From Syntrophorhabdaceae bacterium (GTDB lineage: Bacteria > Desulfobacterota > Syntrophorhabdia > Syntrophorhabdales > Syntrophorhabdaceae): a DNA stretch of 64,000 bases. Where the stretch lies: positions 96,001-160,000 of the forward strand of contig CAXXUO010000002.1 of assembly GCA_963666485.2 (NCBI GenBank), in the 5' to 3' direction. Below, piece by piece: positions 1,603 to 28,330 of this stretch (its first letter is position 1; the number at the start of each line of letters is the position of its first letter). Under the pieces are notes generated by a model. It had not been told where the DNA came from. It saw only the letters and a list, made by a program, of their open reading frames with translations, and ran no database searches. A program made the position numbers and the translations under genes.

Positions 1603-1732
1603 TTGTAACTATTTTGTAACTAACGACCCCTCAAATACCCTCTCAGAATCCAAACATAACCCAAAGATGAGAAATTTTAAAAAGCCTGTAATGTGTTGAT
1701 ATTAGCGCATTTATAGAATTTGGTATAGTGTA
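1603..1732 (+). mobile_element. Putative island right arm (attR arm) copy 1
   Basis: TTGTAACTATTTTGTAAC paired repeat; 1689-1701 is the reverse complement of TATCAACACATTA (IHF consensus WATCAANNNNTTR); homologous to 8202-8329; abuts a tRNA fragment. Confidence 0.75.
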
Positions 1733-1776
1733 CTACGAATCCAAAGGTTAGAGGTTCGATCCCTCTCGGGCGCGCA
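1733..1776 (+). repeat. tRNA-Arg(NCG) 3'-half fragment, att-like copy 1
   Basis: CTACGAA-TCCAA-AGGTT-AGAGG-TTCGATC-CCTCT-CGGGCGC-GCA = anticodon loop, stem, variable loop, T-arm and acceptor 3' strand; no 5' half upstream. Confidence 0.9.
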
Positions 1777-1981
1777 TTTTACTTCGATAAGTTACAAACC
1801 ACACTGAAATTTCACAACCTTGTCGTGCTACCTTATAGCTACCCTTTGAATGTTTTTTGGTTCTGTTGAGACGAAGACAGGATCTTCTGAAGATTGAGGT
1901 AAATCCTTATTAATTCTCATCATCGGACGGGCAGCTCTCTTCCATGCGCCAGGCGGGATACACCGAGACGACCGTGCCGGG

Positions 1982-2009
1982 TGAAACAGTCTGTCTCAAC
2001 ATTGAAACA
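1982..2009 (+). promoter_or_regulatory. Putative sigma-54 enhancer (bEBP UAS)
   Basis: TGAAACA-N3-TGTCTCA-N4-TGAAACA; same arrangement at 53305-53333; ~65 bp upstream of a -24/-12 site. Confidence 0.6.
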
Positions 2010-2073
2010 CATTTCTTTTGGTGTATGGATACAATACGTAATACTTTCGAGGCATTATCAGGATGTTTACGTG

Positions 2074-2089
2074 CGGCATGGTTATTGCT
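2074..2089 (+). promoter_or_regulatory. Sigma-54 -24/-12 promoter
   Basis: CGGCATGGTTATTGCT: GG-N10-GC with TTGC. Confidence 0.65.
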
Positions 2090-2193
2090 CTTTTTATTAT
2101 GGCTATATCTCTGTTAAGATGGAAACAACGGCTTTGCGGTCCGGGTGATCGAAAAGCGCAACTGCCCACGATCGAGATGAAAGGAATCTTTCA

Positions 2194-5100
2194 ATGTCCC
2201 ACAAAAAGATTCTCCTTGTAGAGGATGAGGCCCCTTATAGCCGTTGCCCAGAAGAAGGTCCTCGAGAAGTACGGGTATGCGGTCGTAACCGCTCACTCCG
2301 GAAGAAGAAGGCCATAGAGGACGGTCCGTTCCACCCCGGGCATCGACCTCATCCTCATGGACATCAACCTCGGGAAGGGGAAGATGGACGGCACGGAGGC
2401 CGCGGAGGTCATCCTCAGGGACCACGACATTCCCGTCCTCTTCCTGTCCAGCTACACACAGCCCGAGATCGTCGAGAAAACAGAAAGGATCACCTCCTAC
2501 GGCTATGTCGTCAAGGATTCTGGCGAGACCGTCCTCAACGCATCGATAAAGATGGCGTTCAAACTCTACGAGGCGCACCAGAAGGTCACGCAGAATGCGG
2601 AACAGTTCCGCGCCGTCACCAATACCGTCGATCGACGGCTTCTGGCTCATCGATACGGAAGGCCGCATCCTGGACGTCAACGAGGCTTACTGCCAGATGA
2701 CCGGCTACGGCCGCGACGAACTCCTCGCAATGTACATCCCCGACCTTGACGCGGGTCGAAGACGCCGACATGGCCAGGGAGCACATGGCGAAGGTCATTG
2801 AAAAGGGCTCCGACCGTTTCGAGAGCAGGCACCGCTGCAAGGACGGACGGACAATCGACGTCGAGGTGAGCACAATACTGACGGGGGAACAGAAGCTCCT
2901 TGTCTTCATTCAAAACATCACGGACCGGAAGAAGGCACAAAAGGCCCTGGAGCTGCAATCGGCCATTACGGAAACGGTGGGCGAAGGCATCTTCCTGATA
3001 GGTGTCGAGGACAACATCATCAAGTGGGCGAACTCGAAATTCGAGAAGATGTTCGGCTACGGTCCGGGCGAGATGACGGGGATGCATGTCGACAGGGTGA
3101 ATGCGCCCACGGACAGGACACCGACGGAAACAAGGATATCGATCGTCGACGTGCTTCTCGAAAAAGGGGAATGGCACGGGGAAATAAAGAACGTAAAGAA
3201 GGACGGGACGCATTTCTGGTGCTATATCCGTGTCTCCCTGTTCGACCATCCCGAGTTCGGACGGGTCATGGTATCGGCGCATACGGACACCACGGGGCTC
3301 AAGCAGGGGGAGCAGGAACTGCGGGAAAGCAAAGAGACGTTCCGCGCAATTGCCGATTACACATACGACTGGGAAAACTGGGTTGGACCGGATGGCAGGC
3401 TGATCTGGATAAATCCCGCCGTCGAGCGTTTGACCGGGTACAGCGTAAAAGAATGCCTTGCCATGAAGGATTTCCCTCTGCCCATCATCGAAGACACCGA
3501 CAGGGAGCGGGTTGCTGTTGATTTCTCAGAAGCGGTTAAGGGAGCCTCTGGCGATGGGGTCGATTTTCGTGTCCGCTGTAAAGACGGCACGGTTAAATGG
3601 TTCTCTGCATCGTACCAGCAAATCTACGATTCAGCAGGAAAACATCTTGGCCACCGATCGAGCATACGCGACATTAACGACCGGAAACATGCGGAGGAGA
3701 CAGTTCAGCGGGATCTCGAGGCCATGATGGTTTTGCACAAACTCAGTTTGTCGAGCGCCCTTCCCGGAACCCTGTCAGAGTTGCTCACCGGGATTGTCGA
3801 TGCCGCGATCGCAATCACCTCGGCCGACTTCGGGAACATCCAGCTGTTGGACCCTGAGACCGGCCGTCTCCGGGTCGTTGCGCACCGCAACCTCCCGGAC
3901 TGGTGGCTTGCGTTCTGGGAGACGGTCAGCGAAGGAGAGGGGGGTGTGCGGCACGGCGCTTCAGGACGAGGAACGGGTCATCGTTCCGGACGTGGAGCAG
4001 AGCCCGATCTTTGTCGGAACGCCGGCACTCGAGATCCAGCTGCGGGCCGGCATCAGGGCGGTCCAGTCGACCCCGCTCAGGAGCAGGGATGGCAGGATCA
4101 TCGGCATGTTCTCCACGCATTTCAAAAAGCCGCTCAGGCCGGACGACCGCCAGATACGACTGCTCGATCTGCTCGCCCGACAGGCTGCCGACCTGGTCGA
4201 GCAGGGCCGGTATGAGGCGGATCTCAAGCAGAGCGAGGAAAGGTATCGCACCCTGTTCGAGGCTGCTGCGGACGGCATCGTTATTCACGACACCCGGGGC
4301 AGGAACATCGCTGCCAATCCACGTGCCTGTGAAATGCTGGGATACAGCCGTAACGAACTGCTGGCCATGTCATTATCCGACCTGATCCCGCCGGAAGAGC
4401 TTCAACAAAATCCGCCGCGGCTGAGCGATGCCCTCGCGGGTCGGCCTGTATGTTACGAACGTAAACTGCGGCGAAAGGACGGAACCCTTATCGACATCGA
4501 GATCAGGGCTGGTCGGGTCATGGAAGACAAAATACAGGCTTTCTGGCGGGGACATCACGGAACGCAAACGCGCCGAGAAAGCCTTGCGCCTTGAGCAGGA
4601 ACGTCTCGCAGGGCATCTTGAGAGGAACCAATACCGGGGACATGGGAATGGAATCTGCAAACCGGGGAAGTCGTGTTCAATGAACGATGGGCCGAGATCA
4701 TCGGCTATACCCTGGAGGAGATCTCTCCCCGTTTCCATCGAGACCTGGGAAAAGTTCTGCCACCCGGAGGATCTTAAGGTCAGCGGTGGACCTGTTAGAG
4801 AGACATTTTCCGGGGCGATCTGGATTATTATGAGTGCGAAGCACGGATGCGGCACAAGAGCGGCGAGTGGGCCTGGGTGCTGGACCCGGGGGCAGGTGAT
4901 CACATGGGCGAGCAACGGCAGGACCGCTCATGATGATGGGCACACACCAGGAGAATCACCGGCCCGCAAGCAGGCCGAGGATGACATCAAATCCTCCCTC
5001 CATGAGAAAGAGGTCCTCTTAAAAGAGATCCACCACCGGGTGAAGAAACAACCTCCTGGTCGTCTCGAGCATTTTGAACCTCCAGTCGGATACGATCATG

Positions 5101-5611
5101 GACAGGAAGGCAAAGGACCTCATTGAGGACTGCCGTCAGAGGATACATGCCATGTCCATCATCCACAACAGACTGTATAGTTCTGAGAGCCTCTCCCGCG
5201 TCAGCTTCAAGGGGTACACCGAGGAGCTCCTCGCAGACATTGCCCGCTCCTACGGGACCCGCCCCGGGGATGTCGCTCTCGTGACCGGACGTCGGTGACA
5301 TCACATTCGACATCGAGACCGCGATACCGCTCGGGCTCATCATGAACGAGCTTGTCTCGAATGCCATGAAGCACGCCTTCTCCGGGGAGAGAAAGGGTAC
5401 CATTAGGGTGAACATCCATGAACACGAGGGCAGATTCCTTCTGACGGTCAGGGATAACGGCGTAGGCTTCCCGGAAGGGATCGATTTCACCGCCACCGAA
5501 TCCTTAGGGATGCAGCTCGTCGTCACCCTCGTGGAACAACTCGACGGGAGCATAGATCTTATAAGGGGCAACGGGACGGAGTTCAGGGTTACCTTTGGGG
5601 CCGGGGCATGA
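2194..5611 (+). CDS. REC-PAS(n)-GAF-PAS-HisKA_2/HATPase sensor kinase, multiply frameshifted (pseudogene or assembly error)
   Basis: [10 protein letters not shown] and [12 protein letters not shown] receiver motifs, PAS/PAC repeats, GAF (DFGNIQLLD), [28 protein letters not shown] split across ORFs 2194/2357/2595/2746/3794/5074/5342; paralog of 54086-58489. Confidence 0.85.
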
Positions 5612-5659
5612 GGCACAATACAACGCAAAGCATAACGGCGGAAATCCCGTTAAGATGCT

Positions 5660-8143
5660 ATGAAATATTCATTTTTCAAATCCATACGCACCACACCTTA
5701 TCTTGCTGGTTTTGATAGCGGTCCTTCCGGCCCTTGTCATTCATTGTCTACAACGGGGTAATACAAAAACAACACGACATACGCGAAACAGAAAGCAATG
5801 CCATGCGCGTCCTGACAGGCCTTGCATACGCCCATGAATATGCGGTCGAGAGCACCCACCAGTTCCTCTCTATCCTCGCCCAGATGCCCCGATGTACAGA
5901 ACCTGAACCTCCCCGCGTGCAACCGGCTGTTTGGCAAACTTCTCAAAGATAACCCGCTGTACTCGAACATCTTCCTGGCAAATGATAGGGGAATGTTGGT
6001 TGCCAGTGCCAAACCGTTTACCCCTTTCAGCGTGGAACACCGGAAATTCTTCCGGGACACGATGCAATCACGACGCTTCTCGGCCGGAGAGTATGTGAAA
6101 GGCGTTATCGTGAGGCGTTCCGTGTTCCACTTTTCTTATCCCGTCCTCGATGCGCACAAAAACATGAAAGGTCTTGTCGCGGTAGCTGTCGACCTTGCAA
6201 GCTACGGCAATGTCTTTGCCATGGCAAAATTGCCTGAACACTCCGTCCTGGCAATCTCTGACCATAACCACACGATCCTTTACCGGTACCCTAATCCCGA
6301 AAAGTACATCGGCTCAAAGGCCCTGCAGGAAAATGTAAAGTCTTTTGCCGGGGAAGAGGAACAAGGTCTCTTCAGAGGCACCGGGTTTGAAGGGGTGCCC
6401 CGCCTGTTCGCCTTTAAACAGTTTCGCCTCGGGCCCGGTCAGCCGTTCTACATGGTCATGCGCGTAGGTATCTATGAGAAAGAGGCCCTTGCCTCCATGA
6501 AACGCAATTTCCTCATAAACATCGCCCTCCTGTGGTTTGCATTCATCGCCGCTTTGCTGCTGTCCTGGGTACTCGGCAGCGCGATTATTACCCGGAGGAT
6601 GAACAGAGTCATAGAAGCATCCACGCAGCTTGGACATGGCGACCTATCGGCCCGCACCGGTTTGCACCATAGCGAAAGCGAATTCGGCCAACTCGCCGCT
6701 GCGTTCGACGGGATGGCGACGGCCCTGGAGCAAAAAGAAGCGGAACGTTTGTCTTCCGAACAAGCCCTCAGGAGGAGTGAGGAAAAGTTCCGTTCCCTCG
6801 TCGAACACCTGCCACAGAATGTCTTCATAAAGGACAGCTTTTCCCGGTATATCACCTGCAACCGGCATTACGCCCGGGGGCTCGGGCTGGAGATAGAAGA
6901 CATAGTCGGGAAGACGGACTATGAATTCCATCGAAAAGAACTGGCGGATGGGTACCGGGCGGATGATCGGAAGGTTATCGAATCCGGCAAGGCCATCTCC
7001 CTCGAGGAGAAGTACGTCCGCTCCGGTGAAGAGCGCTGGGCATGGACAACGAAGGTCCCGTTCCGCAACCAGCAGGGAGATGTCATCGGGGTGATGGGCA
7101 TATTCGAGGATATCACGGACAGGAAGACTCTTTCGGAGAAACTCTTTCACGAACAGGAGCGCCTCCGCATCATCTTCGACGCCTCGCCCTCGGGCATTAT
7201 CCTCGTGGACCCGTCCGGTATCATCACCTTCGCTAACCAGAGGATGGCCGACATGTTCGGTTGTGCCCTGGATGAGCTCGTCGGCTCCTCGTATCCGTCC
7301 CATGTCCATCCGGACCAGCGGTCCACGGGTGACGCAAGGATGCGCCAGCTCATACGGGGAGAGGTGGACAGCGTCAACACAGAACGGTATTACATCCGCA
7401 AGGACGGTACCGGTTTCTGGGGATATTTGAGCGGCCGCCGCCAGGCTGACGAGAGCGGAACCTTTGTTAATCTCGTCGGCATTATCATGGACATAACCGC
7501 GCTCAAACAGGTCGAAAACACCCTCAAGGCCTCCCTCAAGGAGAAGGAGTCCCTCCTCAAAGAAATCCACCACCGGGTGAAGAACAACCTCATGGTCGTA
7601 TCGAGCATCTTAAGCCTCCAGTCGGGGACCATCAGGGACCAGAAGGTCAGGGACCTCATCGAGGAGTGCCGCAGACGAATACAGGTCATGTCCCTCATAC
7701 ACAACAAGCTCTACCGTTCAGCCAATCTCGCACATATCGGCTTCAGGGAATACACGGAGGACCTCCTTGGGGACATTGCCAGTTCGTACGGAGACCGCGC
7801 GGGAAATATCGCCCTCGTGACCGACGTCGGGGACATCTCCTTCGACATCGAGACCGCCATACCGCTGGGTCTCATCATGAACGAGCTCGTCTCGAACGCC
7901 ATGAAACATGCCTTCCCCGCAGAGAGGAAGGGCACCATCACGGTCAACCTCAATGAACAGGAGGGCAGCTTCCGGCTCACGGTCGGCGACGACGGCGCGG
8001 GGTTCCCGGAAGATCTCGATTTCACCGCCACCGAATCCTTAGGGATGCAGCTCGTCGTCAGCCTCGTGGAACAGCTCGACGGCACCATAGAACTCATCAC
8101 GGACAACGGGACGGAGTTCAGGGTAACCTTCGGGGCGGGATAA
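5660..8143 (+). CDS. dCache-HAMP-PAS-PAS-HisKA_2 sensor histidine kinase; frameshifts in first ~250 bp
   Basis: ATG 5660 MKYSFFKSIRT matches paralog at 49845; ORF 5822-8143 has Cache, TM, HAMP (EFGQLAAAFD), PAS, EIHHRVKNNL and HATPase. Confidence 0.88.
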
Positions 8144-8201
8144 GAAAATGGAGGATTTGACCCGTATATGGACCAGTATTGTGGTAAAACCACGCAAGGG
8201 A

Positions 8202-8329
8202 TTGTAACTATTTTGTAACGAATGACCCCTCAAATACCTCTCAGAATCCAACATAATCCAAAGATGAGACATTTGTAAAAGCTTGTAATCTATTGATATT
8301 AGCGCCTTTATAGGAATTGGTAGAGTGTA
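8202..8329 (+). mobile_element. Putative island right arm (attR arm) copy 2
   Basis: Colinear homolog of 1603-1732; TTGTAACTATTTTGTAAC; IHF consensus at 8286-8298 (reverse complement TATCAATAGATTA). Confidence 0.75.
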
Positions 8330-8374
8330 CTGCGAACCCAAAGGTTAGAGGTTCGATCCCTCTCGGGCGCGCCA
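8330..8374 (+). repeat. tRNA-Arg(NCG) 3'-half fragment, att-like copy 2
   Basis: CTGCGAACCCAAAGGTTAGAGGTTCGATCCCTCTCGGGCGCGCCA, ends in CCA. Confidence 0.9.
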
Positions 8375-8669
8375 ATAAAAGCAATATGTCACTCTCAGTA
8401 TTCACATTCTCCGCCGAAAATACCCAGCAATATACCCGGCAGACTGATGACTTTGTCCTTGACGTAGTCCTTATTATATACCCAAGCCGAAAAGGACCAG
8501 CATTCTTTGTTCCCCGATTTGTTCCATAGTCAAGAAGTTGAAAATTCTTAATACTGTTCATCTTTCCCCGTCGAATTCCGCGTCCTGAATTTTATAATTG
8601 TAAAAAGAAAACTGACTCTATATAATCGAACGAGCACAATTAAATTCAGAGTGGCAGGGAGGAGCGTCT

Positions 8670-8933
8670 ATGAAGAAAACATTCATCGTATTGTTCGCGG
8701 GATTTATTGTCCTTGTGTTTGCCTGCAATCCTGCTGTGTCTGCTGATACCCCGGTCAAAGCTGACGCAACGAAAATGGATTCTCCTAAGAAAAAGAACGA
8801 ATCGAAGGAAATAAAAGGGAAGACAGAGAAGAATGTACCCAAAAAGACCGGTGACGCTTTAGGGGAAACTGCACCAAAATCCTCGGCACCAGTTGGTAAG
8901 AGCACAAATGCCTTGAAACAAAATACGAAGTAA
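8670..8933 (+). CDS. Small secreted Lys-rich protein
   Basis: GGAGGAG RBS, MKK signal peptide, low-complexity K/T/S body. Confidence 0.7.
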   Translation: MKKTFIVLFAGFIVLVFACNPAVSADTPVKADATKMDSPKKKNESKEIKGKTEKNVPKKTGDALGETAPKSSAPVGKSTNALKQNTK

Positions 8934-9237
8934 CTCCTGACTTTATTGCTCATATAGTGCGCCGCCCTTTGAAGATTCGTGGTGCATGGCCGAGCATGAT
9001 AAGCTTGTCGAATTGGTCAGAGAAAAGACCAACGGGTTGAACGCTGACTCCTGGAATCAGAAGGGATGCTATCACTTTCATTCTCCAACCAGGGAGGGGC
9101 GTTGAGGGAATACAGGATGTGATCAGGGAATCGAAAAGCGATTGATCTATCAAGCCAATTATTTGAAATCCGACGGCATCGTCAGCTGCATTCATTAAAC
9201 CCGCACCTCCAGGGCACCACAATCAATCTGACGCTCG

Positions 9238-10809: not shown

Positions 10810-10958
10810 TTCGATTCTGTAACATATTATGTCAAAGGTTGACAAGCTGGACATACAAAGAAAAGAAGGACGTATCCGGGGGCCTGTCATGGCCCTGCTG
10901 GCGCCGCGGGGCTTGACATCGGAGGGAAATTGTGTGTGTTAATTGTTAAGGAACAACG

Positions 10959-11684
10959 ATGATCTCCGTGATTATCCCCACCTACAGAGAAGCCGAAAAC
11001 CTGCGCCTCATCCTGCCGCGGGTGTTTCACGTCCTGGAACAGGCCGGCATGGAAGGCGAGGTCATCGTTGTGGACGACGATTCACCGGACGGAACGGCGG
11101 AAACGGTGCGGGAACTTGCCCGCGATTACCCCGTGCGGGTGCATGTCCGCAGGGACGAGAGGGGGCTGGCAACCGCGGTCATGAAGGGTTTTGAACTTGC
11201 CGGGGGCGACATCGTCGTCGTGATGGACGCGGATCTGAGCCACCCCGGCGAAAAGATCCCCGAAATGGTGCGGCCGATCCTGGAGGACAGGTGCGATATA
11301 ACCGTCGGCAGCCGCTACGTGAGCGGCGGGGGCTGCGACCACTGGCCGCTGTCGCGAAAGCTGATCAGCAGGTCTTCGGGGCTTATGGCCAGGGGGGTGA
11401 CGAAGCTTTCCGACCCGACCAGCGGTTTCATGGCGGTGCGGAAGGCCGTCCTCGACAAAACGGTGCTGGACCCGGTGGGGTGGAAGATAGTCCTCGAGGT
11501 CGTTGTCAAGACCGGGCAGAGGGTTGAGGAGGTCCCGATCGTTTTTGCGGACAGGGAAAAAGGGCAGAGCAAGCTGAACTTGAGGGTGCAGGCCGAGTAC
11601 ATGGCACACCTCATGAGGCTCTACCATTTCAGGTACCGGTCACTTTTCGAGTTCGTGAAATTCTGCATCACCGCCAAAGGTTAG
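10959..11684 (+). CDS. Polyprenol monophosphomannose synthase (GT2, DPM1-like); C-terminal GtrA-like domain apparently truncated by tRNA fragment
   Basis: ISVIIPTYRE, VVDDDSPDGT, VMDADLSH, GSRY, DREKGQSKL; ends FVKFCITAKG* with the stop inside the tRNA fragment. Confidence 0.88.
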   Translation: MISVIIPTYREAENLRLILPRVFHVLEQAGMEGEVIVVDDDSPDGTAETVRELARDYPVRVHVRRDERGLATAVMKGFELAGGDIVVVMDADLSHPGEKIPEMVRPILEDRCDITVGSRYVSGGGCDHWPLSRKLISRSSGLMARGVTKLSDPTSGFMAVRKAVLDKTVLDPVGWKIVLEVVVKTGQRVEEVPIVFADREKGQSKLNLRVQAEYMAHLMRLYHFRYRSLFEFVKFCITAKG

Positions 11685-11710
11685 AGGTTCGATCCCTCTC
11701 GGGCGCGCCA
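11674..11710 (+). repeat. tRNA-Arg 3' fragment, att-like copy 3
   Basis: CCAAAGGTTAGAGGTTCGATCCCTCTCGGGCGCGCCA, identical to the corresponding 37 bp of copy 2. Confidence 0.9.
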
Positions 11711-11785
11711 ATGACATCGAGGGTTCAAGAGCAACACTCAGAAAAAGGCTCTCTCTCCTTCAACAGTGTCCCGAGCATAAAGCCA

Positions 11786-11810
11786 GAAAAAGCCCCGGAT
11801 GAACCGGGGC
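11786..11810 (-). terminator. Rho-independent terminator of the pentapeptide gene
   Basis: GCCCCGG-ATGAA-CCGGGGC hairpin followed on the minus strand by a T-run. Confidence 0.7.
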
Positions 11811-11822
11811 CTTTCATTATTC

Positions 11823-12446: not shown

Positions 12447-12467
12447 GGGACATGCGGGATCTTATGC

Positions 12468-17704: not shown

Positions 17705-17893
17705 AAACAACCTTTCCTTTTGGTGCTGTTTTCCTTGAGTTGACTTAATCAAGAAAACCCGATAAATGCTCCGGCGTTATGCCCGATGGCGGGACAAGAA
17801 GTGAAAATGCGGCAGCCGGTGATATAGACCATCGGAGACCCATGAACATTCCTGAATAGCAACAATATTACCCCGTATTGTCATTCACGATCG

Positions 17894-20446: not shown

Positions 20447-21066
20447 ACGAAGAAGGACCGACCATTTTCATTATTGATGACGACGCTTCGGTACGTAAAA
20501 GCCTCTCAAGGCTCCTCAAGTCACACAGGCTGGCGGTAGAGACCTTCGCTTCGGCGGAACAGTTTCTCGGGCGCGAGGTGTACGGCGGGAACGGCTGCAT
20601 CATTCTCGACGTCAGAATGCCGGGATTGAGCGGCATTGCCCTCAGGGACGAATTGACGAGAACCGGCTGCCGGATGCCCATCATCTTCATAACCGGCCAC
20701 GGCGATATCCCCATGGGTGTGGATGCAATGAAAAAAGGGGCGTACGATTTCCTTGCGAAGCCTTTCGAAGAGGAGCAGCTCGTGGACGCCGTGCGTGGCG
20801 CCCTCGAAAAAAATGCGCAGGACATGGCCAGCCGTATTGAATCGGAAACCGTGAAAAGCCTCACCGACCGGCTGACCCCGAGGGAAAAAGAGGTTCTCCC
20901 CTATATTATCGCCGGTTTTCTGAACAAGCAGATCGCCTTCAAGCTCAACATCGCCGAAAAGACCGTCAAGGTCCATCGGGGCCATATCATGGAAAAGCTT
21001 GGCGCGGGCTCTGTTGCGGAACTCGTTCGTCTTACCGACAAGGCAAATATCAAGCCAATTGAATAG
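20443..21066 (+). CDS. FixJ/NodW-like response regulator (REC + LuxR HTH)
   Basis: IIDDDASVR, LDVRMPG, FITGHGD, LTPREKEV, LNKQIA..TVKVHRG; ATGA overlap with the kinase. Confidence 0.93.
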   Translation: MNEEGPTIFIIDDDASVRKSLSRLLKSHRLAVETFASAEQFLGREVYGGNGCIILDVRMPGLSGIALRDELTRTGCRMPIIFITGHGDIPMGVDAMKKGAYDFLAKPFEEEQLVDAVRGALEKNAQDMASRIESETVKSLTDRLTPREKEVLPYIIAGFLNKQIAFKLNIAEKTVKVHRGHIMEKLGAGSVAELVRLTDKANIKPIE

Positions 21067-21081
21067 ATGGCCGTAAAGGGC

Positions 21082-21164
21082 CGTAAGGCGTAAGGCGTGA
21101 GCGCGTAAGGCGTAAGGCGTGAGCGCGTAAGGCGTAAGGCGTGAGCGCGTAAGGCGTAAAGGCG
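21082..21164 (+). repeat. Tandem repeat, 22-bp unit CGTAAGGCGTAAGGCGTGAGCG x3 plus partial
   Basis: Units start at 21082, 21104 and 21126, partial at 21148; built from CGTAAGG heptamers. Confidence 0.95.
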
Positions 21165-21185
21165 CCCAGCCCCTCGCTCATCGCC

Positions 21186-21212
21186 GTCATCCCGGGCTTG
21201 ACCCGGGACCCA
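21186..21212. repeat. REP-like palindrome
   Basis: GTCATCCCGGGCTTGACCCGGGACCCA hairpin in intergenic DNA. Confidence 0.6.
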
Positions 21213-21281
21213 AGGTTCTGCCCTTTTGTAACATCGGTATCAACCTCTAACCCTTCAGGATTCTGCGTCTTTCCCCACGTG

Positions 21282-21304
21282 TACGACCAAGGTCCAATAG
21301 ACGA
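21282..21304 (+). promoter_or_regulatory. Putative operator copy 1
   Basis: TACGACCAAGGTCCAATAGACGA, 22/23 identical to 24529-24551; both copies lie upstream of operon starts. Confidence 0.6.
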
Positions 21305-21367
21305 CTGCGTTCCCGTTATTTATCATACATATACAAATGAGAAGCCTCTCCCTAAATAAGGACAGGA

Positions 21368-21757
21368 ATGGATAGAAGAATAAAAAGCATGGTCTATGTT
21401 ATCGACGACGATGCGTCGGTCAGGAAGGCTTTCGGCAGGCTTATGCGGTCGGCAAATATCCGGGCCGAGATATTTTCATCCCCTGATGAATTTTTCCGCA
21501 CGGACAGGAAAGAGGGCACTGCCTGCATTCTCCTGGATATCAGTATGCCCGGGATAACAGGCTTCGAATTTATGCAGGTCATGGCGGCGGAAAAGATAGA
21601 TATGCCCGTCATCGTTGTCTCCGCAAGCGACGACGTGCGCATCAGGGAACGCGCAAAAGAGTTGGGGGCCGTGGCCTTTTTTCGAAAACCCGTCGATGAT
21701 CAGGCCCTTCTGGATGCTATCTGGTGGGCCGTTTCAGGAGCGAAGGAAAGGGCATGA
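21368..21757 (+). CDS. Single-domain response regulator
   Basis: VYVIDDDASVR, LLDISMPG, FFRKPVD. Confidence 0.9.
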   Translation: MDRRIKSMVYVIDDDASVRKAFGRLMRSANIRAEIFSSPDEFFRTDRKEGTACILLDISMPGITGFEFMQVMAAEKIDMPVIVVSASDDVRIRERAKELGAVAFFRKPVDDQALLDAIWWAVSGAKERA

Positions 21758-21784
21758 CCTTCCGGTTTTCATAGGAACGAAACA

Positions 21785-22297
21785 ATGAGTATGATGCAAA
21801 AACTGAAAAACGAGATCAAAGAGGTCGGATTGGCGGCCGTCTACTTTTTGACCTGGATCGGTTCCCTCGTTCTGATCAAGACCCTTATCCTGGACGAATA
21901 CAGGATAGAGTTCCACGGGCTTTCCCTTGCCATTCTCGGCGCACTTATCCTGGCGAAAGTTGTCATCGTGCTGGAATATGTTCCCGTGGGCAACTGGACC
22001 CGGGATAAAGCCGTGATCTGGGACGTCCTTCTCCGTACGCTCCTCTACAGCGCGGGCGTGTTCCTCGTTATCGTCCTGGAAAAATCGTTTGAAGGCCGCC
22101 GTCTCCATGGCGGTTTCATTCCCTCTCTTATCTTCGTGTTCCGATCCGCCAATATGCCCCATGTTTGGGCGAACGTGGTCTGTCTCTCGGGGGCTCTCCT
22201 CGGGTACAACATACTGTCTGTACTGCGCAACCATCTTGGAAGGGCCGGACTTATCAAGATCTTTACAAGCCCGGCACAATGGAATGAATACAAATGA
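21785..22297 (+). CDS. Conserved hypothetical membrane protein
   Basis: Four hydrophobic segments, operonic spacing. Confidence 0.7.
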   Translation: MSMMQKLKNEIKEVGLAAVYFLTWIGSLVLIKTLILDEYRIEFHGLSLAILGALILAKVVIVLEYVPVGNWTRDKAVIWDVLLRTLLYSAGVFLVIVLEKSFEGRRLHGGFIPSLIFVFRSANMPHVWANVVCLSGALLGYNILSVLRNHLGRAGLIKIFTSPAQWNEYK

Positions 22298-22365
22298 GGT
22301 TGAGGCTCAAACTTCAGCATGAAAGAAGAAAACCCCATAATTTTATTTAATACAGGAGGCATGCC

Positions 22366-23181
22366 ATGAAAATGAGAAAGGCGCTATGTATGATGTTCTT
22401 CCTGCTGTTTATGCTTTCTGCGGGATGGGTGCACGGGCAGACAACCGCCGCACCGGTTCAAAAAACGCCGGGGGACCAATGGAAATTCACCATAGCGCCC
22501 TTTCTGTGGGCGAGCTCGATCAACAGCACGGTCACGGTGGGCGGGTATGATGTCGACACGAGGACGTCTTTTTCCGATATCTGGCGCGACCTGAACGGGG
22601 CCTTCATGATCCACATGGAGGCGCAGAAGGAGAACTTCGGGCTCTTTCTCGAGCCCATGTATTCGAGGATACGGGCCGATTCCACCTTCAACCGCCAGCG
22701 CGATCCGAACCTCCCGGCCATCCCGCGAGACCTTACCCTGACGTATACTCAGTGGATCGTGGAAGGCGGCGGGTTCTACCAGGCAGGCAAATGGCGAACC
22801 GGGGAAAACAACGATGAATGGACGACGCTTGACATTCTCGCCGGTGCCCGCTACTGGTCGGTCAAGACAGACCTTGATACAAGCACGGTGATAAACCCCG
22901 GCAGGTCGAGTTCGTGGGTAGACCCCATTGTCGGTGTCCGTTTTACCGCCGACCTGTCGAAAAAGGTCCTCGTGAATCTGAGAGGCGATATTGGCGGATT
23001 TGGAGTGGGATCTGATTTTACCTGGAATGCACTGGCCCTTTTTGGCTATCGATTTAACGAGCATATCACGGGGCTCATCGGTTATCGGGCCCTTTACGTC
23101 AATTATAAGGCCGGGACAAGCCGGGAAAGGTTCGAAGAAACATTTTATGGACCTGTCCTGGGACTGGCGTTCAGTTTCTGA
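22366..23181 (+). CDS. Outer-membrane beta-barrel protein
   Basis: Signal peptide, WKFTIAPFLW, WVDPIVG, GDIGGFGVGS, C-terminal GPVLGLAFSF. Confidence 0.8.
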   Translation: MKMRKALCMMFFLLFMLSAGWVHGQTTAAPVQKTPGDQWKFTIAPFLWASSINSTVTVGGYDVDTRTSFSDIWRDLNGAFMIHMEAQKENFGLFLEPMYSRIRADSTFNRQRDPNLPAIPRDLTLTYTQWIVEGGGFYQAGKWRTGENNDEWTTLDILAGARYWSVKTDLDTSTVINPGRSSSWVDPIVGVRFTADLSKKVLVNLRGDIGGFGVGSDFTWNALALFGYRFNEHITGLIGYRALYVNYKAGTSRERFEETFYGPVLGLAFSF

Positions 23182-23220
23182 TGATCCGGCCGGTCGTGAG
23201 AATATTCAAGGAGGAATAAC

Positions 23221-24489
23221 ATGTTCTGCAGGAAAATGATCGCTTTCGCCGGTATCACAGTGCTCCTCGTTCTCTGCTCCGTCTTCTTCAATGCCGAGGT
23301 CTCCTCGCAGGAACTGCGTACTCCGCCCTTTACATTGAAGGCATCGGAAATCCTTCCACAAGGACTCATCCGGGGCGAAAATTATACCGTTAAAGAAACA
23401 GTCAGCAATGACGGGCTGATCAATACATACGAACTCGAGACGAAATACGGCCCGACCACCGTGGAAAGTACGGTGTCCCTCCTCAAAAGGATCAACGAAC
23501 TGAAAGCGCTTGACGCCATGGAAAAAATGCAGGGGACCGACACCTTTGTAAAAGCGGCCCAGGATGCTGCCACCGGACCATTGGCGACGGCACGGGACCT
23601 GGTCGTGAACCCTGTCGGCACTGTCAAGAATATCGGCAGCGGCATCAGCCGTTTTTTCAGCAACGTCGGGCAGGCGATATCCAGCAATAGCCCGGACCAG
23701 CCCAACATAGCCAAGGCGGCCCTTGGCCAGGCGGTGAACAAGAGGGGCTTTGCCTATGAATTCAAGGTCGACCCCTATTCAAGTTATAAACCGCTCCAGG
23801 ACACGCTTGACAAGATAGCCTGGACAGCGACCGCCGGCAGCCTCACCGTCAAGGCGGCCTTCTCGGCCATACCCGGGGGCGCCGGTACAGTCGTGTCGCT
23901 CACCAGTACGTCCGACAGCCTCCGTTCCCTGGTCCGCGACAATACCCCGGCCGCCCTTGAACAGATCAACAGGGACAAGCTTTCCGGAATGGGCATCCCG
24001 GACCGGGTGATCAACGCCTACATGAATAACAGGCATTACAACGCGTTCGAGCAGACGATCCTTGTGGGTGAACTGGACGACATGCGGGGCATAAAGGGCC
24101 GTGATGCCTTTATCTATGTCGCATCCATGGCAAACGAGGAAACGGTTGCCATTTATATGCGCGGCACTGCACAGCTCATGGCGCTATTCAATAAGCGTGT
24201 AGCACCCGTCGACCACATGGTCGAGATCAGCCGGCTCGTGTTCCTCAAAACAAAAAATGGCCGGATGGTCGGGATATTCCCCGTCGATAATGTTTCATGG
24301 ACCGCAAATCTTCTTCAGCGCGAAAGAGACATCTCGCAGGCGATGCGCAAGATGAGGGGTGTCCGCGGCAAAGAACTGTGGTTTGGGGGTCCCGTGGACC
24401 GTGCCGCCCGGGAGGCCCTTGAAGCAAGGGGATGGAAGGTCGTCGACCGCTTCCTGGAACGGGCTTTCAAAGAACTGGTAAAACAATAA
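23221..24489 (+). CDS. Secreted hypothetical protein
   Basis: GGAGG RBS, signal peptide, 422-aa ORF. Confidence 0.75.
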   Translation: MFCRKMIAFAGITVLLVLCSVFFNAEVSSQELRTPPFTLKASEILPQGLIRGENYTVKETVSNDGLINTYELETKYGPTTVESTVSLLKRINELKALDAMEKMQGTDTFVKAAQDAATGPLATARDLVVNPVGTVKNIGSGISRFFSNVGQAISSNSPDQPNIAKAALGQAVNKRGFAYEFKVDPYSSYKPLQDTLDKIAWTATAGSLTVKAAFSAIPGGAGTVVSLTSTSDSLRSLVRDNTPAALEQINRDKLSGMGIPDRVINAYMNNRHYNAFEQTILVGELDDMRGIKGRDAFIYVASMANEETVAIYMRGTAQLMALFNKRVAPVDHMVEISRLVFLKTKNGRMVGIFPVDNVSWTANLLQRERDISQAMRKMRGVRGKELWFGGPVDRAAREALEARGWKVVDRFLERAFKELVKQ

Positions 24490-24528
24490 CCAGGCTGCTG
24501 ATCCAGGGAAATATGGATAGGACGTATC

Positions 24529-24551
24529 TACGACCAAGGTCCCATAGACGA
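24529..24551 (+). promoter_or_regulatory. Putative operator copy 2
   Basis: TACGACCAAGGTCCCATAGACGA. Confidence 0.6.
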
Positions 24552-24671
24552 GATTTTTTCGTTCACCTAGACTTCTACGGAACATCGGCCGGTGCGGGTC
24601 GATCGATGAGTTAAGGATAGAGGCCCAAGGACAACTCCGATACGGGTCCTTAAACCAGGGAGGGAGAGCTC

Positions 24672-24974
24672 ATGATGAAACATGTGTGCATGAACGTGGT
24701 AGCTGTGATCGTATTTACCTTTGTCTTCACGGCAATTGCCGGGGCCCAGCAGTTTCCCCTGCTGGATGACGTGGCGAATAAGGTTGTCCAGAAATACCAG
24801 CAGTCCACCTGCCAGCAGTTGTGGCAGGAGAAGGCCTCGCAAAAAGCGAAATCCGAAAGGGAAGAAAGGCTCGTACAGCTGCTGCGGGACGACCCGGCGA
24901 TGCGCGCCGAATTCTTCAACAGGGTGTCCGTGCCCATCGCCACGAAAATGTTTGAATGCGGAATGATCCCATGA
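24672..24974 (+). CDS. Small secreted conserved hypothetical protein
   Basis: Signal peptide; KYQQSTCQQLW...KMFECGMIP with a Cys pair. Confidence 0.75.
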   Translation: MMKHVCMNVVAVIVFTFVFTAIAGAQQFPLLDDVANKVVQKYQQSTCQQLWQEKASQKAKSEREERLVQLLRDDPAMRAEFFNRVSVPIATKMFECGMIP

Positions 24975-25903
24975 TGCGGCTCCGCGGACCTCAAAAACAA
25001 CCTCATTATATCTCAGGTGTAGCATGGCGGCGGGGTTTGCTTTTCCTGCTGGTGCTGATTGTGCTTACCTTTGCATGCGCGGCACATGTTCATGCCGGGC
25101 AGCCGGGCAAATCAACTCAGGGTAAGAAAGCTGCAAAAAATCAGGTCGATGCGCCATCATCGCCGGCGAGGCTGGAGATAGAGCCGAAGGCGGTCGAAAT
25201 CGTCAAAGCAGCGTGCGAACGGCTGGCTACCGCCAAAACGGTGCGCTTTACGGCAATCGTCGAGTACGAGTACCCGAGCCTTCTCGGCCCCGCATTGGTC
25301 TACACGACGAGATCCGAGGTGGCCATGCAGCGGCCTGACAAGCTGCGGATAATCACGCCGGGGGACGGTCCTGCCACCGAATTCTACTATGACGGCAAGG
25401 CAATTTCCGCCCTGTCACCCGCGGAAAAGATGATCGCCGTGGCCGAGGCCCCTCCCACAATAGACGCCGCGCTGCAGGCCGCTTACGACCTGGCTTCGAT
25501 CTACTTTCCTTTCACCGACATCCTTGTTGCCGACCCGTACAAGGACCTTTCGGAAGGCCTGAGGATCGCGTTTTATATCGGGCAGTCCCGTGTGGTTGGC
25601 GGCGTGACGACCGATATGGTGGCCCTGGCGAACGATGCCGTCTTCCTTCAAATCTGGATAGGAGCGGAAGACAGGCTGCCGCGCATGGTCCGCGCGGTCT
25701 ACCGTGATGATCCGTCCCGGCTGCGGCACGGGCTCACGTTGTCAAACTGGAAACTCGATGACACCCTTCCGGCAGACACATTCACCCCGTCTGTGCCGGC
25801 GGATGCCATTTCCGTGTCTTTTGCCCGGCCTGATCCTCAACTCCCTCCCGCTCCTACCCCTGCCAGATTCAAGGAAAAGCCCAAAGCCACACCGGGAAAG
25901 TAA
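24971..25903 (+). CDS. DUF2092-family periplasmic protein
   Basis: MQRPDKLRI, FYYDGK, LQIWIGAEDRLPR, LSNWKLD. Confidence 0.75.
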   Translation: MMRLRGPQKQPHYISGVAWRRGLLFLLVLIVLTFACAAHVHAGQPGKSTQGKKAAKNQVDAPSSPARLEIEPKAVEIVKAACERLATAKTVRFTAIVEYEYPSLLGPALVYTTRSEVAMQRPDKLRIITPGDGPATEFYYDGKAISALSPAEKMIAVAEAPPTIDAALQAAYDLASIYFPFTDILVADPYKDLSEGLRIAFYIGQSRVVGGVTTDMVALANDAVFLQIWIGAEDRLPRMVRAVYRDDPSRLRHGLTLSNWKLDDTLPADTFTPSVPADAISVSFARPDPQLPPAPTPARFKEKPKATPGK

Positions 25904-26195
25904 GGAGATACCAGATGAATATCAAAAAAGCGGTCAACCAATGTATCCCGGTTATCGCCATTTTTTTGGTACCGCTCTTCGCGTGCGGGCAGGCGTTTGC
26001 CTTCGCACATGCTAACATCTATGGCGGCCGGACGGCCGGAACAAGCAGTTCATGGAGTCATACCGGGCGTTACGGCGGTACAGCATCGGGCGGCGGGGGT
26101 TCATGGAGCGGTACCGGGGCGCGCGGCGGTACGGCCTCGGGCGGAGGCGGCTCGTGGAGTGCAAAGGGTGAGTACGGGGGGCACGCATCCGGCAG

Positions 26196-27554
26196 GATAG
26201 TGTCAAGAATCTTTCGCACTTTCCATAGCAACCCCACTAATCCGGTTATGCCTTAATGCTCTCGATGATCTCCTGCTCAAGCCGGTCCATTTTCAGGTAC
26301 TGGCTCATTCCCCATTTGGTTCCCGCTATGTGCCTTAGCCGGGCAGCCACGAGCATGAGTGCCGACCTGCCGTCAGGGAACGACCCGACGACCCGTGTGC
26401 GCCGTCTGATCTCCTTCATGATCCGCTCCAGGGGGTTGTTGGTCCTGATCCTCCTCCAGTGCTCGCGGGGGAACCCGTAATAGCCGAGCGTCTCGTGGAT
26501 CCCCTCGTTCAGCATGTCCGCGGCCCTGCCGAGTTTCATCTCCTTGAGCTTCTTCACCACCGCCTCCGCTTTCTTCTGCGCTTCTTTCCTGTCCTCCTGG
26601 GCATGGATCGCCGTGAGCATGGCGACGACCTCCTTGATCTTCCCCCTGGGCACGACGGTGAACACGTTCCGGTAGAAGTGGACAACGCACCTCTGCCATG
26701 AGGCGTCGGGGTAGAACAGGGCGAGACTCTCGACGAGGCCCAGGCACTTGTCGGATATGAAGAGCTCCACACCCTTGAGCCCGCGCTCTTTGAGGTAGCG
26801 CAGGAAGGATGTCCAGCTGTCCTTGTCCTCCCGCGCACCCTCGGCCACACCCAGGATCTCCCGGTAGCCTTCGCGGTTCACCCCTATCGCTACAAGGACC
26901 GATACGCTCCTGACCTCCCCGCCCCAGGTCCTCTTGAGCGCTATCCCGTCGAGGTAGACGTAGGGATGCTCACCTTCGATGGGGCTTAATCTCCACTGCT
27001 CGATCGTGGTGTATATCTTTGCGTTGAGGTTCGAGACGGTGCCGGGGCTCACCTTCGTGCCCCAGAGGGCCTCCGTGATGTCCTCGACCCTCCTTACCGA
27101 CACCCCGGCCAGGTACATCTCGACGAGGGCCTCTTCCACGGATGATTCCCTTCTTTTGTACCGTTCGATGATCGCGGTCTCGAAGGGAAGCGACCTCAGC
27201 TTGGGCATCTTGATGTCCACCTCCCCCGCCTTCGTCTGGAGGGTTCGGGTATAATGGCCCGCCCGTGTGTCCCTGCGTTCCTCCGTGCGCTCGTACCTCT
27301 GTGCGTTGCACAGGCGGGACGCCTCTTCATCGAGAAGTGCATTGAGCGTCTCCTGCACCGTTCCCCTTACGATCTCTCCCAGGTGGTCCTTTATCTGCGC
27401 CTCATTAATCTGGATTATCGTGCCGCCTTCTGTGGTAGACTCTTTCTGGGCCATGGTTCTTCCTCCCTCTGGTTTTTGTTTTGTGTGGTGCTTAACACTA
27501 CCAGATTCGAGGTTGCCATGGCTCTTAAATGTGCGAAAAATATTTTACGTTATC
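26196..27554 (-). mobile_element. IS256-family insertion sequence, 1359 bp
   Basis: Imperfect 28-bp terminal inverted repeats (GATAGTGTCAAGAATCTTTCGCACTTTC / GATAACGTAAAATATTTTTCGCACATTT); 8-bp duplication TCCGGCAG at 26188-26195 and 27555-27562. Confidence 0.95.
26246..27454 (-). CDS. IS256 transposase
   Basis: EMYLAGVSVRRV, YVYLDG, WQRCVVHFYRN, RTNNPLERIMKEIRRRT. Confidence 0.97.
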   Translation of the reverse strand: MAQKESTTEGGTIIQINEAQIKDHLGEIVRGTVQETLNALLDEEASRLCNAQRYERTEERRDTRAGHYTRTLQTKAGEVDIKMPKLRSLPFETAIIERYKRRESSVEEALVEMYLAGVSVRRVEDITEALWGTKVSPGTVSNLNAKIYTTIEQWRLSPIEGEHPYVYLDGIALKRTWGGEVRSVSVLVAIGVNREGYREILGVAEGAREDKDSWTSFLRYLKERGLKGVELFISDKCLGLVESLALFYPDASWQRCVVHFYRNVFTVVPRGKIKEVVAMLTAIHAQEDRKEAQKKAEAVVKKLKEMKLGRAADMLNEGIHETLGYYGFPREHWRRIRTNNPLERIMKEIRRRTRVVGSFPDGRSALMLVAARLRHIAGTKWGMSQYLKMDRLEQEIIESIKA

Positions 27555-28289
27555 TCCGGCAGCGGCGGATCGTCGAGCGGGACATCTGCCTATGGAGGCA
27601 GTTACTCGCACACAACGGGACAAGGGACAACTGCTGCAAACCGTTATGGCACGACTGCCACCCATACCTACGGTTCGGGCTCAACCACTGCCACAACTCA
27701 GTCGGGCGCGACTGCGACGCATTACTACGGCGCCGGGACAGTTGCAACGAGTCCGACCGGCGCGACGGCTTACCGCCCGCCCGTTCCGCCACCGACCCCT
27801 TACTATGGCGCAGCCTATCCGGCGTCCTATCATCCGCCTGTTGTCGTCAATACCTATGGCAACGGGTGCTACAATTGTGGAGGCTGGTCACCGGCCGGTG
27901 CAGTTGCTGCAGGAGCAGTAGTCGGCGTGGCCGTAGGTGCGGCTCACGCATCCTCGAACACGGCCGACGCAACAACCAGCGCCTATAATGCGGGAGTTGC
28001 AGCAGGCAGCGCGAACACTGCTGCCGCGACAACGAAAGCCTACAACGCGGGTGTCGCGGCAGGCACGGCGACAAACTATGCGGCGGGGGCTATTTATCCC
28101 ACGCTGCCGGCAGGCGCCACTCCGATCAAAAAGAATGGGACAACCTACTACCTCAGCGGCAACACGTGGTTCCAGCCTTCCTATGGGGCAAACGGGGTTT
28201 ATTACCGCGTGGTACCGACGCCTTAAAAAGATAGAGAAAACTGATCCACTGCTTAGCTAAACGGAGAACGGAATATGCGATAAACCTAG

Positions 28290-28330
28290 CGAATCCAAAG
28301 GTCAGAGGCCCGATCCCTCCCGGGCGCGCA
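28290..28330 (+). repeat. Degenerate tRNA-Arg 3' fragment, att-like copy 5
   Basis: CGAATCCAAAGGTCAGAGGCCCGATCCCTCCCGGGCGCGCA. Confidence 0.85.

Follow-up and report, generated by a model that had tools for sequence, protein, structure and literature searches.

Gene content around the tRNA-Arg copies

The window, which is the whole 64,000-nt stretch of DNA that we analyzed, lies on the 669-kb contig C2 and holds five copies of the 3' part of a tRNA-Arg(ACG) gene, all on the plus strand. These copies bound the segments that we call A to E, and an efflux operon follows on the right flank (Table 1). The segments are 1.05-16.7 kb long, contain several genes each, and carry genes on both strands; GC content does not distinguish them.

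Table 1 Features of the tRNA-Arg array, in window coordinates.
Feature	Position	Strand	Description
Segment A, right tail	1-1602		Segment A is 16.7 kb, from the intact tRNA-Arg(ACG) to copy 1
P-arm-like repeat upstream of copy 1	1603-1731	+	63-nt dispersed element, then degenerate tRNA 5' half; shared with 8202-8328
Copy 1	1732-1775	+	tRNA-Arg(ACG) 3' part, anticodon loop to discriminator; identical to parent
Segment B	1776-8328		Two PAS/HisKA_2 sensor kinases; 188-aa protein of a multi-copy family
Copy 2	8329-8376	+	Two changes in anticodon-loop part, rest exact; followed by CCAAT, like parent
Segment C	8377-11673		550-aa protein of no known family (-); family-2 glycosyltransferase (+)
Copy 3	11674-11712	+	Short form lacking the anticodon-loop part; overlaps last codons of glycosyltransferase ORF
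Segment D	11713-12762		Pentapeptide-repeat gene (11823-12278, -); ClC stub (12453-12722, +)
Copy 4	12763-12802	+	Degenerate, 4 mismatches in 34-mer; within read-through tail of ClC stub
Segment E	12803-28289		SdpI-like gene, PAS hybrid kinases, response regulators, LuxR-type regulator, DUF2092
P-arm relic	14008-14075	+	Hairpin part of a ~140-nt module found ahead of fragments in congeners; not followed by a tRNA fragment here
IS256/Mutator-family insertion sequence	26187-27557	-	Transposase 26249-27454; three more genomic copies at 99.9-100% identity
Copy 5	28290-28333	+	Degenerate, 4 mismatches in 34-mer; T-stem broken
Right flank, MacB/ABC/HlyD/OEP efflux operon	28346-33480	-	Accessory, GC 48%

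The contents of the segments differ in how they relate to the rest of the genus. Window positions 1-767 close a block of NifU/Mrp/rhodanese genes that the whole genus conserves, and much of segment E is kept in congeners at 72-81% identity, but at other loci there. In contrast, congeners lack a syntenic counterpart of segments C and D, of the RND part of segment A, and of the right flank, and the efflux operon has no DNA match among 19 of them. Within segment C, positions 8589-11651 match a locus of congener G012 at 95-96% identity, whereas flanking core genes are about 72-75% identical; this difference indicates that segment C has recently been transferred between species. The 16 kb fetched around the G012 copy contain no tRNA or att fragment. 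That copy adjoins an ORF whose end, by eye, resembles an IS-type transposase.

Segment D contains a truncated gene: only the last 90 codons of a ClC-type channel gene remain, including the second CBS domain, and this stub abuts copy 4. Other apparent lesions cannot be read in the same way. Given that the apparent frameshifts in the first kinase gene of segment B fall at homopolymers and are absent from independent contigs, we do not count apparent pseudogenes as decay. The AcrB gene left of the window, which is in three pieces, is open to the same doubt about homopolymer indels.

Boundaries and distribution of the copies

A 32-mer covering the T-arm and acceptor end occurs exactly at 1743, 8340, and 11676, against an expectation of zero from 100 shuffles. 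A repeat search added further copies at 12768 and 28295, so that the start-to-start spacings are 6597, 3336, 1094, and 15,527 nt. The five same-orientation copies reported in the initial annotation are thus all where it had placed them, on the plus strand. Searching the 3.77-Mb assembly with a profile of the copies, we found only seven places: the parent tRNA, the five copies in the window, and an exact copy on contig C3. The next-best match is an unrelated tRNA-Arg(CCG) (E=0.04). Genome-wide dispersal of the fragment, which had been named as a check on the array, is therefore not seen.

The repeat is 39-45 nt long, counted from the anticodon loop. Identity to the parent starts in or at this loop in four of the five window copies (1, 2, 4, and 5) and in the C3 copy, and the same 5' boundary is common to fragments from congeners and metagenomes. 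In copy 3, identity begins at CCAAAGG, 3' of the anticodon loop and about 5 nt later than in the others; the 90 nt downstream of it are similar to the parent tRNA trailer. Indeed, the trailers behind the tRNA and behind the copies are related to one another. Both the positions and the anatomy of the copies support the earlier reading of them as att-type tRNA 3' fragments in a single orientation. The accompanying statement that there is no 5' half needs correction: copies 1 and 2 carry a degenerate, in-register 5' half, with alignment scores of 27 and 33 compared to shuffle means of 17-18 (sd about 3). About 170 nt upstream are common to copies 1 and 2, at 90% identity.

The intact tRNA gene, recombinases, and use of the site in relatives

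ARAGORN finds no tRNA in the window. The intact parent gene, the only tRNA-Arg(ACG) isoacceptor gene in the genome, lies at C2:80898-80974(+), 15.1 kb left of the window start and 16.7 kb left of copy 1. An intact tRNA-Arg to the left had been predicted, together with an integrase; the tRNA is there and the integrase is not, either in that flank or anywhere on the contig. A six-frame search of the genome for PF00589 returned six matches, none of them on contig C2, and a Pfam scan of 64 ORFs from C2:76-132 kb found no integrase in the bounded segments, in agreement with their initial description as integrase-free. The broader claim that no recombinase is visible is correct for integrases and fails for the IS256/Mutator-family transposase in segment E. 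Serine recombinase (PF00239) matches are found only on C3 and not on C2. The large serine recombinase element next to the C3 copy ends inside a tRNA-Ser gene, as a second remnant ends inside another tRNA-Ser; the enzyme therefore goes with tRNA-Ser.

In relatives, elements that carry an integrase have used this att site. Among eight left-flank loci examined, all seven congeners with the tRNA behind the conserved left flank differ in the DNA that follows it, which bears out the description of the locus as a variable hotspot. In G009, an 8.7 kb mobilizable element sits between the tRNA and a displaced fragment; it encodes a 399-aa tyrosine integrase adjoining the fragment, a MobA-type relaxase, a NikA-like protein, and a restriction-modification pair. 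The working tRNA of G009 has five T-arm changes and the displaced fragment retains the genus sequence, showing that the 3' half now in use came from the element. In two metagenome contigs, L139 and L142, integrases lie immediately behind the same tRNA and are unrelated to that of G009 (24-30% identity). Using tblastn with these three integrases, we detected nothing in the array, not even a remnant; in the whole 99%-complete assembly there were only generic matches, none above 31% identity, to integrases that are Xer-like or lie beside other tRNA genes, and no close homologue. Congeners also hold bounded segments free of an integrase, one of them in G015.

Formation of the array and its alternatives

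Tyrosine-integrase elements of tDNA islands cross over in the anticodon loop; each element brings its own tRNA 3' half and trailer, pushing the previous 3' half downstream. With this in mind, we think it likely that the array is a decayed, partly rearranged tandem of genomic islands, built by repeated site-specific integration at the single tRNA-Arg(ACG) gene. Its members would have retained their att-type ends while their integration and transfer genes were lost or never present, which would make them equivalent to cis-mobilizable elements (CIMEs). Deletions, IS insertion, and rearrangements would then have mixed foreign and genus-typical DNA between the att copies. Consistent with addition at the tRNA end, the degenerate copies 4 and 5 are the most distal; copies 1-3 are exact and so give no signal of age. 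Signs of decay include the ClC stub, the P-arm relic, the short copy 3, and the IS256-type copy. We infer the sequence of events from this arrangement, as well as a separate integration at the origin of each segment. This genome has no cognate integrase, and for that reason the array in it is most likely static. Several observations sit uneasily with a decayed array: all six bounded segments are integrase-free, which requires many independent losses or another origin, and the genus-conserved blocks in A and the genes of core-like identity in E are not obviously foreign, nor does GC content set the segments apart.

Arrays of this type have precedents. In the parts of PMC5704250 that bear on ICE and IME accretion (ICESt1/ICESt3 of Streptococcus thermophilus), attL/attR-type repeats of a target-gene 3' end bound segments that stand in tandem at one site; CIMEs, flanked by attL and attR, lack integration and transfer genes, as we found here, and tandems with CIMEs are proposed to arise by decay and accretion, one integrated element decaying before the next integrates. 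The present array differs in having six members in a row, in a genome that lacks both a resident helper ICE or IME and a cognate integrase, and in that part of its content is genus-conserved. As far as the account in PMC3146451 extends, Dehalococcoides has 15 ssrA islands without an integration module, proposed to be CIMEs; these are strain-variable, arranged in tandem arrays, and marked by numerous direct repeats of a small-RNA gene's 3' end, up to 100 kb downstream. That locus gathers one gene class, rdhA, as the tRNA-Arg array holds sensor kinases. The Dehalococcoides arrays involve tmRNA, a 20 bp repeat, and a CcrB-like serine recombinase (same source, same extent), whereas here tRNA-Arg is the target, the repeat measures 39-45 nt, relatives use tyrosine integrases, and the contig has no serine recombinase.

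The Islander/TIGER islands, in the portions of PMC4383910 that describe them, share the regenerated tRNA and displaced 3' fragment at their ends as well as an anticodon-centered class of crossover. Their catalogue of 3919 islands includes 125 tandems with at least two members and 4 with at least three, accepted only if each member has its own integrase. Our locus has an intact tRNA on the same strand and a shared crossover boundary, but no integrase for each member, so this array would be filtered out or merged; finders that require one integrase per member would miss it or report a single island. The initial annotation had called the array integron-like, and we rejected this reading: the contig has no PF00589 match, and there is no IntI, attI, attC, or Pc promoter. 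The repeats are tRNA halves, and the units are multi-gene, 1-17 kb, and on both strands; genus-conserved blocks, a gene stub, an IS copy, and a copy lacking the crossover region lie among them. Such content is in keeping with accretion, decay, and rearrangement and does not fit promoterless cassettes, and the resemblance to integrons is limited to the general idea of genes gathering between repeated recombination sites. The array is real and unusually long, with six integrase-free segments behind one tRNA gene in a poorly studied lineage of anaerobes (syntrophic deltaproteobacteria), yet scar arrays of this kind are known, and it is no new integron-like machine. It adds a case of a tRNA hotspot that gathers and keeps cargo long after the delivering elements decay, and opens no new mechanism.

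It is very improbable that the exact 39-45-nt repeats simply joined unrelated pieces in a false order during assembly. Segment order across the exact repeats does come from this assembly alone, since short-read contigs (runs X20 and X22) break inside copies 1-3 and cannot confirm it, and homopolymer indel differences are present at 1000-7424. No reads of X24, the only run of raw reads, aligned to the stretch. However, repeats with both flanks exist in independent contigs: one reaches from copy 2 into copy 3 (8348-11703), and a second covers 11683-16606, making copy 4 the only copy that such contigs span. Copies 4 and 5 are unique in sequence, all copies lie on one strand behind the parent tRNA, an arrangement not expected from a chance misjoin, and smaller versions of this architecture exist in congeners. 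We also consider it improbable that the DNA between the copies is for the most part native chromosome, a few integrations having left att copies and homologous or site-specific recombination between these, and between IS copies, having carried genus-typical segments in. The NifU/Mrp block is single-copy and in three congeners (G013, G018, and G012) adjoins homologues of C2:611-624 kb; IS256-type copies identical to each other are found close to copy 5 and to the C3 copy. In G003, the ClC gene matching the stub at copy 4 directly neighbors the CoA-disulfide reductase gene that here lies left of the NifU/Mrp block, so that C2:87981-108722 resembles the G003 order after circular permutation. Such recombination would account for the content of A and E, but not for the origin of the att copies, nor for the parts without syntenic counterparts; moreover, a 150-aa ORF and this reductase gene are adjacent both here and in G014, and part of the gene order is therefore old.

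The remaining alternative is that the segments, with working att ends, were excised, shuffled, and stacked by the integrase of a visiting mobilizable element acting in trans, making the tRNA-Arg locus a gene-accumulating platform, notably for sensor kinases. We regard this as unlikely, though less so than native DNA. The six integrase-free segments here and the one in G015, the related trailers, and the recent movement of segment C between species speak for it, as do the kinase genes beside fragments in this genome, G007, and G014. So does a P-arm module of about 140 nt, kept at 74-89% identity upstream of fragments in G014 (two loci), G007, G015, and two metagenome contigs with differing cargo; it hints that integrase-less units may still be moved, and so counts against decay as the whole explanation. 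On the other hand, the copies in this genome do not match the conserved P-arm profile, one relic excepted, and the module could be conserved simply because elements spread recently and then lost their integrases. A 99%-complete assembly without a cognate integrase also argues against it, as do the missing crossover region of copy 3, the degeneracy of copies 4 and 5, and the truncated gene abutting copy 4. The same holds for the G012 copy of segment C, with its att-free 16 kb and transposase-like neighbor. Stacking by an integrase in trans is a possible, CIME-like behavior that needs no new principle. We give a similarly low chance to a genus-wide family of integrase-less modules bounded by tRNA-Arg att sites, restacked in trans by integrases of unrelated visitors, with the locus as an exchange platform for sensor-kinase and envelope genes; of such modules, one conserved end may consist of a two-hairpin P arm of ~140 nt together with the tRNA half, and the other of a P' arm resembling the tRNA trailer. 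While a decayed island tandem remains the reading that we prefer, the P-arm module kept beside integrase-free segments in several species is the one lead that merits pursuit.

The tRNA-Arg(ACG) gene and its partial copies

The source assembly is bacterial and comprises 3.77 Mb in 10 contigs, with tmRNA and tRNA-Sec genes present; the window corresponds to C2:96001-160000. ARAGORN finds no tRNA gene in the window, and no Rfam family reaches its gathering threshold there. A 32-mer covering the T-arm and acceptor end of tRNA-Arg(ACG) occurs exactly at three window positions (0 expected from 100 shuffles), and a repeat search of the window added two diverged copies. These five same-strand copies, with start-to-start spacings of 6597, 3336, 1094, and 15527 nt, reproduce the coordinates and segment sizes of the initial annotation, which was also right to predict an intact tRNA-Arg to the left: the sole tRNA-Arg(ACG) gene of the genome lies 15.1 kb left of the window. 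Together, the parent gene and the copy positions therefore define an array of six segments: A to E plus the right flank.

Coordinates of the array and associated features (window positions unless a contig or locus is named)
Feature	Position	Remark
Parent tRNA-Arg(ACG)	C2:80898-80974	same strand as copies
Copy 1	1732, +	32-mer exact at 1743
Copy 2	8329, +	32-mer exact at 8340
Copy 3	11674, +	32-mer exact at 11676
Copy 4	12763, +	diverged, found at 12768
Copy 5	28290, +	diverged, found at 28295
Sixth copy	C3:171978	exact
Segment A		16.7 kb, mostly left of window
Segment B	1776-8328	
Segment C	8377-11673	
Segment D	11713-12762	
Segment E	12803-28289	
63-nt element	1603-1668; 8202-8265	before copies 1 and 2
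188-aa ORF	2117-2680	no family match
ClC-type gene stub	12453-12722	last 90 codons
P-arm relic	14008-14075	68 nt, without fragment
22-nt repeats and palindromic element	21073-21230	
IS256/Mutator-family transposase	26249-27454	sole transposase among 64 ORFs (Pfam)
PF00589 matches, two		Xer-like
PF00589 match		adjoins tRNA-Arg(TCT)
PF00589 match		adjoins tRNA-Arg(CCT)
PF00589 match		near tRNA-Cys and tRNA-Gly
PF00589 match	C3	fragment
Locus of large serine recombinase, HTH gene, and sixth copy	L002:7566-10018 (C3:169566-172018)	recombinase of 555 aa; Resolvase, Recombinase, and Zn-ribbon domains

Copies 1-3 match the 3'-terminal 34 nt of the parent without a difference, and copies 4 and 5 have 4 differences each. 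A copy-profile search of the genome returned seven places (the parent, the five window copies, and the exact copy on C3) and nothing else below E=0.04; the genome-wide dispersal named at the outset as evidence against an array was not seen. Identity to the tRNA starts in the anticodon loop, after ACTA and at CGAATCC, in copies 1, 2, 4, 5, and the C3 copy; in copy 3 it starts ~5 nt later, at CCAAAGG. The earlier statement that there is no 5' half has to be amended for copies 1 and 2, which also carry a degenerate 5' half in register; in copy 2, this half agrees with the tRNA at about three quarters of the 35 positions, interrupted by gaps of 1 nt and 3 nt. These two copies share ~170 nt of upstream sequence at 90% identity. 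The ~90-130 nt 3' of the parent tRNA, copy 3, and the C3 copy are mutually related, and these trailers include a GC hairpin resembling a tRNA terminator; in the congener G011, the trailer of the intact tRNA is homologous to the stretch 3' of copy 1. Such a make-up is expected for attL/attR hybrids of elements with an attP that includes a tRNA-like stretch and its trailer; the established knowledge of tDNA islands behind this reading is summarised in PMC4383910.

Upstream of both copy 1 and copy 2 lies a 63-nt element (TTGTAACTATTTTGTAAC…), which recurs at C1:822697 (95% identity), at C3:177808 (85%), and in G012, another congener (97%); at least one occurrence is just 3' of a kinase gene.

Contigs from X20 and X22, sequencing runs holding this genome, run through copy 4 but stop within copies 1-3; the repeats and flanking sequences are confirmed by them, the segment order is not. 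Among the listed matches of contigs from these runs and from X1, a sediment metagenome, there are no att-copy joints, and the contigs break at exact repeats; in X24, the one run of raw reads, no read matched this stretch. The X20 and X22 contigs also have many 1-nt deletions relative to the window between 1000 and 7424. Of the differences listed, 12 were inspected; each falls in a homopolymer, and two would restore the reading frame of a kinase across 4428-5611. The kinase frameshifts are therefore probably assembly errors, with uncorrected indels artificially splitting genes in 1000-7424, and the same caution applies to the AcrB gene that lies in three pieces left of the window. Because the differences sit in homopolymers, we dropped these pseudogenes as a sign of decay.

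Use of the site in relatives

Seven of the eight congeners whose left-flank locus was fetched have the fumarase/symporter flank followed by tRNA-Arg(ACG), and the DNA behind the tRNA differs in each of the seven; a displaced fragment lies within the fetched stretch in two. In the 8.7 kb behind the tRNA of G009, a 399-aa tyrosine integrase is encoded beside the fragment, and further genes specify a MobA-type relaxase, a NikA-like protein, and a SmaI-type restriction-modification pair; this insert is a complete integrative mobilizable element. The working tRNA of G009 has five T-arm changes and the displaced fragment retains the genus sequence, so the element gave the 3' half now in use. In G015, a bounded segment of 2.9 kb holds a TPR protein and small ORFs without an integrase.

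An exact-match scan of metagenome contigs yielded 19 loci: 13 with an intact tRNA, 5 with a fragment, and 1 truncated where its contig ends. An integrase lies directly behind the tRNA in L139 and L142, and DUF932 or polyvalent-protein genes come after it in three other contigs (based on 16 of the 27 ORFs listed; L136, a duplicate of L137, was set aside, as were the ORFs further away in L127 and L137). Around the five fragments, none of 27 ORFs is an integrase. The integrases of G009, L139, and L142 are only 24-30% identical to one another; their best matches in the studied genome reach at most 31% identity, to Xer-like or other-tRNA integrases, and none lies inside the array. Relatives of the G009 integrase in a species-representative collection were uninformative about this site, being at most 34% identical (48% for one partial match) and located beside many different tRNAs.

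When up to 3 mismatches are allowed, the 34-mer matches five times in the studied genome and, in the other 19 of the 20 genomes of the genus, twice in three, once in ten, and not at all in six; these counts are lower bounds because many of the genomes are fragmented MAGs.

Mobility enzymes, element ends, and the history of the array

A Pfam scan of 64 ORFs from C2:76 kb to 132 kb found no integrase, resolvase, or relaxase. The initial annotation saw no recombinase in the window, and this stands for integrases and resolvases; the window does, however, contain the transposase of an IS256/Mutator-family element, which is present four times in the genome (99.9-100% identity). Its prediction of an integrase to the left failed: a six-frame PF00589 search of the genome gave six matches, none on C2. 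PF00239 matches are confined to C3, PF03432 (relaxase) has no match in the genome, and none of 19 Pfam-blank ORFs shows a recombination or transfer function in NCBIfam or PHROGs.

The large serine recombinase beside the sixth copy was rejected as the missing enzyme, because the 3' ends of this gene and of a second remnant overlap tRNA-Ser genes. The C3 gene ends inside the 3' end of tRNA-Ser(TGA), followed by an HTH gene and the exact tRNA-Arg fragment; at the end of contig C7, the remnant (89% identical) overlaps tRNA-Ser(GGA). The two look like a family of serine-integrase elements that targets tRNA-Ser genes.

A module of ~140 nt, the P arm, precedes the fragment at two loci of G014, in G007 and G015, and in two metagenome contigs. 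It consists of two hairpins and then …GTTGATATCATTGGATAyAyCTA, and is 74-89% identical between loci with differing cargo; no integrase lies near these loci in up to 11 kb. Trans-mobilized elements would show this picture of conserved ends with no enzyme, which makes the P arm a lead towards such elements, but recent spread followed by integrase loss would leave the same picture. In the studied genome, the C3 copy has only the last ~12 nt of the module in common, and the congener P-arm profile finds one partial relic only; copies 1 and 2 look like a P-arm variant with more tRNA-like sequence. The motif ATATCAA occurs 0.54 times per 150 nt upstream of 13 fragment sites versus 0.077 in low-GC background; we gave this no weight because the motif was chosen post hoc and the sites are related by descent.

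The best explanation of the array is tandem accretion at tRNA-Arg(ACG), then decay and rearrangement. Mobilizable elements of several integrase types would have accreted in tandem at this gene; mobility genes would then have been lost, with deletions, IS insertion, and rearrangement. The array members are CIME-like (CIME, cis-mobilizable element). Accretion with CIME-like members has been reported in streptococcal ICE/IME tandems (PMC5704250) and in the Dehalococcoides ssrA arrays, 15 of whose islands have no integration module (PMC3146451). Islander, as outlined in PMC4383910, demands an integrase for each member, so the present array would go uncalled. The likeness to integrons proposed initially did not hold up; every defining feature tested was absent.

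Cargo of the segments

Segment GC is 0.47-0.58 versus a genome mean of 0.545 (sd 0.038); without separation from the genome, GC was rejected as a mark of the segments. Segment A opens with an RND efflux operon, for which none of 30 relatives has matching DNA. It continues with a single-copy block (CoA-disulfide reductase, TrmO, NifU, Mrp, rhodanese) that is kept across the genus at 71-85% identity and adjoins homologues of C2:611-624 kb in G013, G018, and G012. Segment B contains two PAS/HisKA_2 kinases with ~80% identical paralogues elsewhere in the window. The 188-aa ORF has paralogues (~75-83% identical) in at least four places in the studied genome and several in G007, usually near sensor kinase genes.

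Positions 8589-11651 of segment C are 95-96% identical to contig C6 of G012, where core identity is ~72-75%; the segment has been transferred recently. No tRNA fragment lies near the G012 counterpart within the 16 kb fetched; it adjoins an ORF whose end, read by eye, resembles an IS-type transposase. A contig of the X1 run matches 9455-11673 at ~98% and diverges precisely where copy 3 begins, at its first base; another organism therefore carries segment C, and the right-hand junction there is different.

Segment D comprises a pentapeptide-repeat gene and the stub of a ClC-type channel gene. Because the studied genome has no other copy, this truncation is real. In G003, the full-length gene directly adjoins a reductase gene homologous to that of segment A. 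The stub adjoins copy 4, with the reductase gene (L001:11981) 20 kb further left, and the two are immediate neighbours in G003:C4; thus the order in C2:87981-108722 resembles that of G003 after circular permutation.

Segment E contains kinases and regulators, with congener counterparts of 72-81% identity at other loci, as well as the IS copy and the P-arm relic. Right of copy 5, an efflux operon of 48% GC has no match in 19 congeners and is accessory too. Within segment E, a 22-nt unit (CGTAAGGCGTAAGGCGTGAGCG) is repeated in tandem ahead of a GC-rich palindromic element of ~37 nt; many further occurrences of both, 90-100% identical and spread over several contigs, make them look like a dispersed REP-like repeat family.
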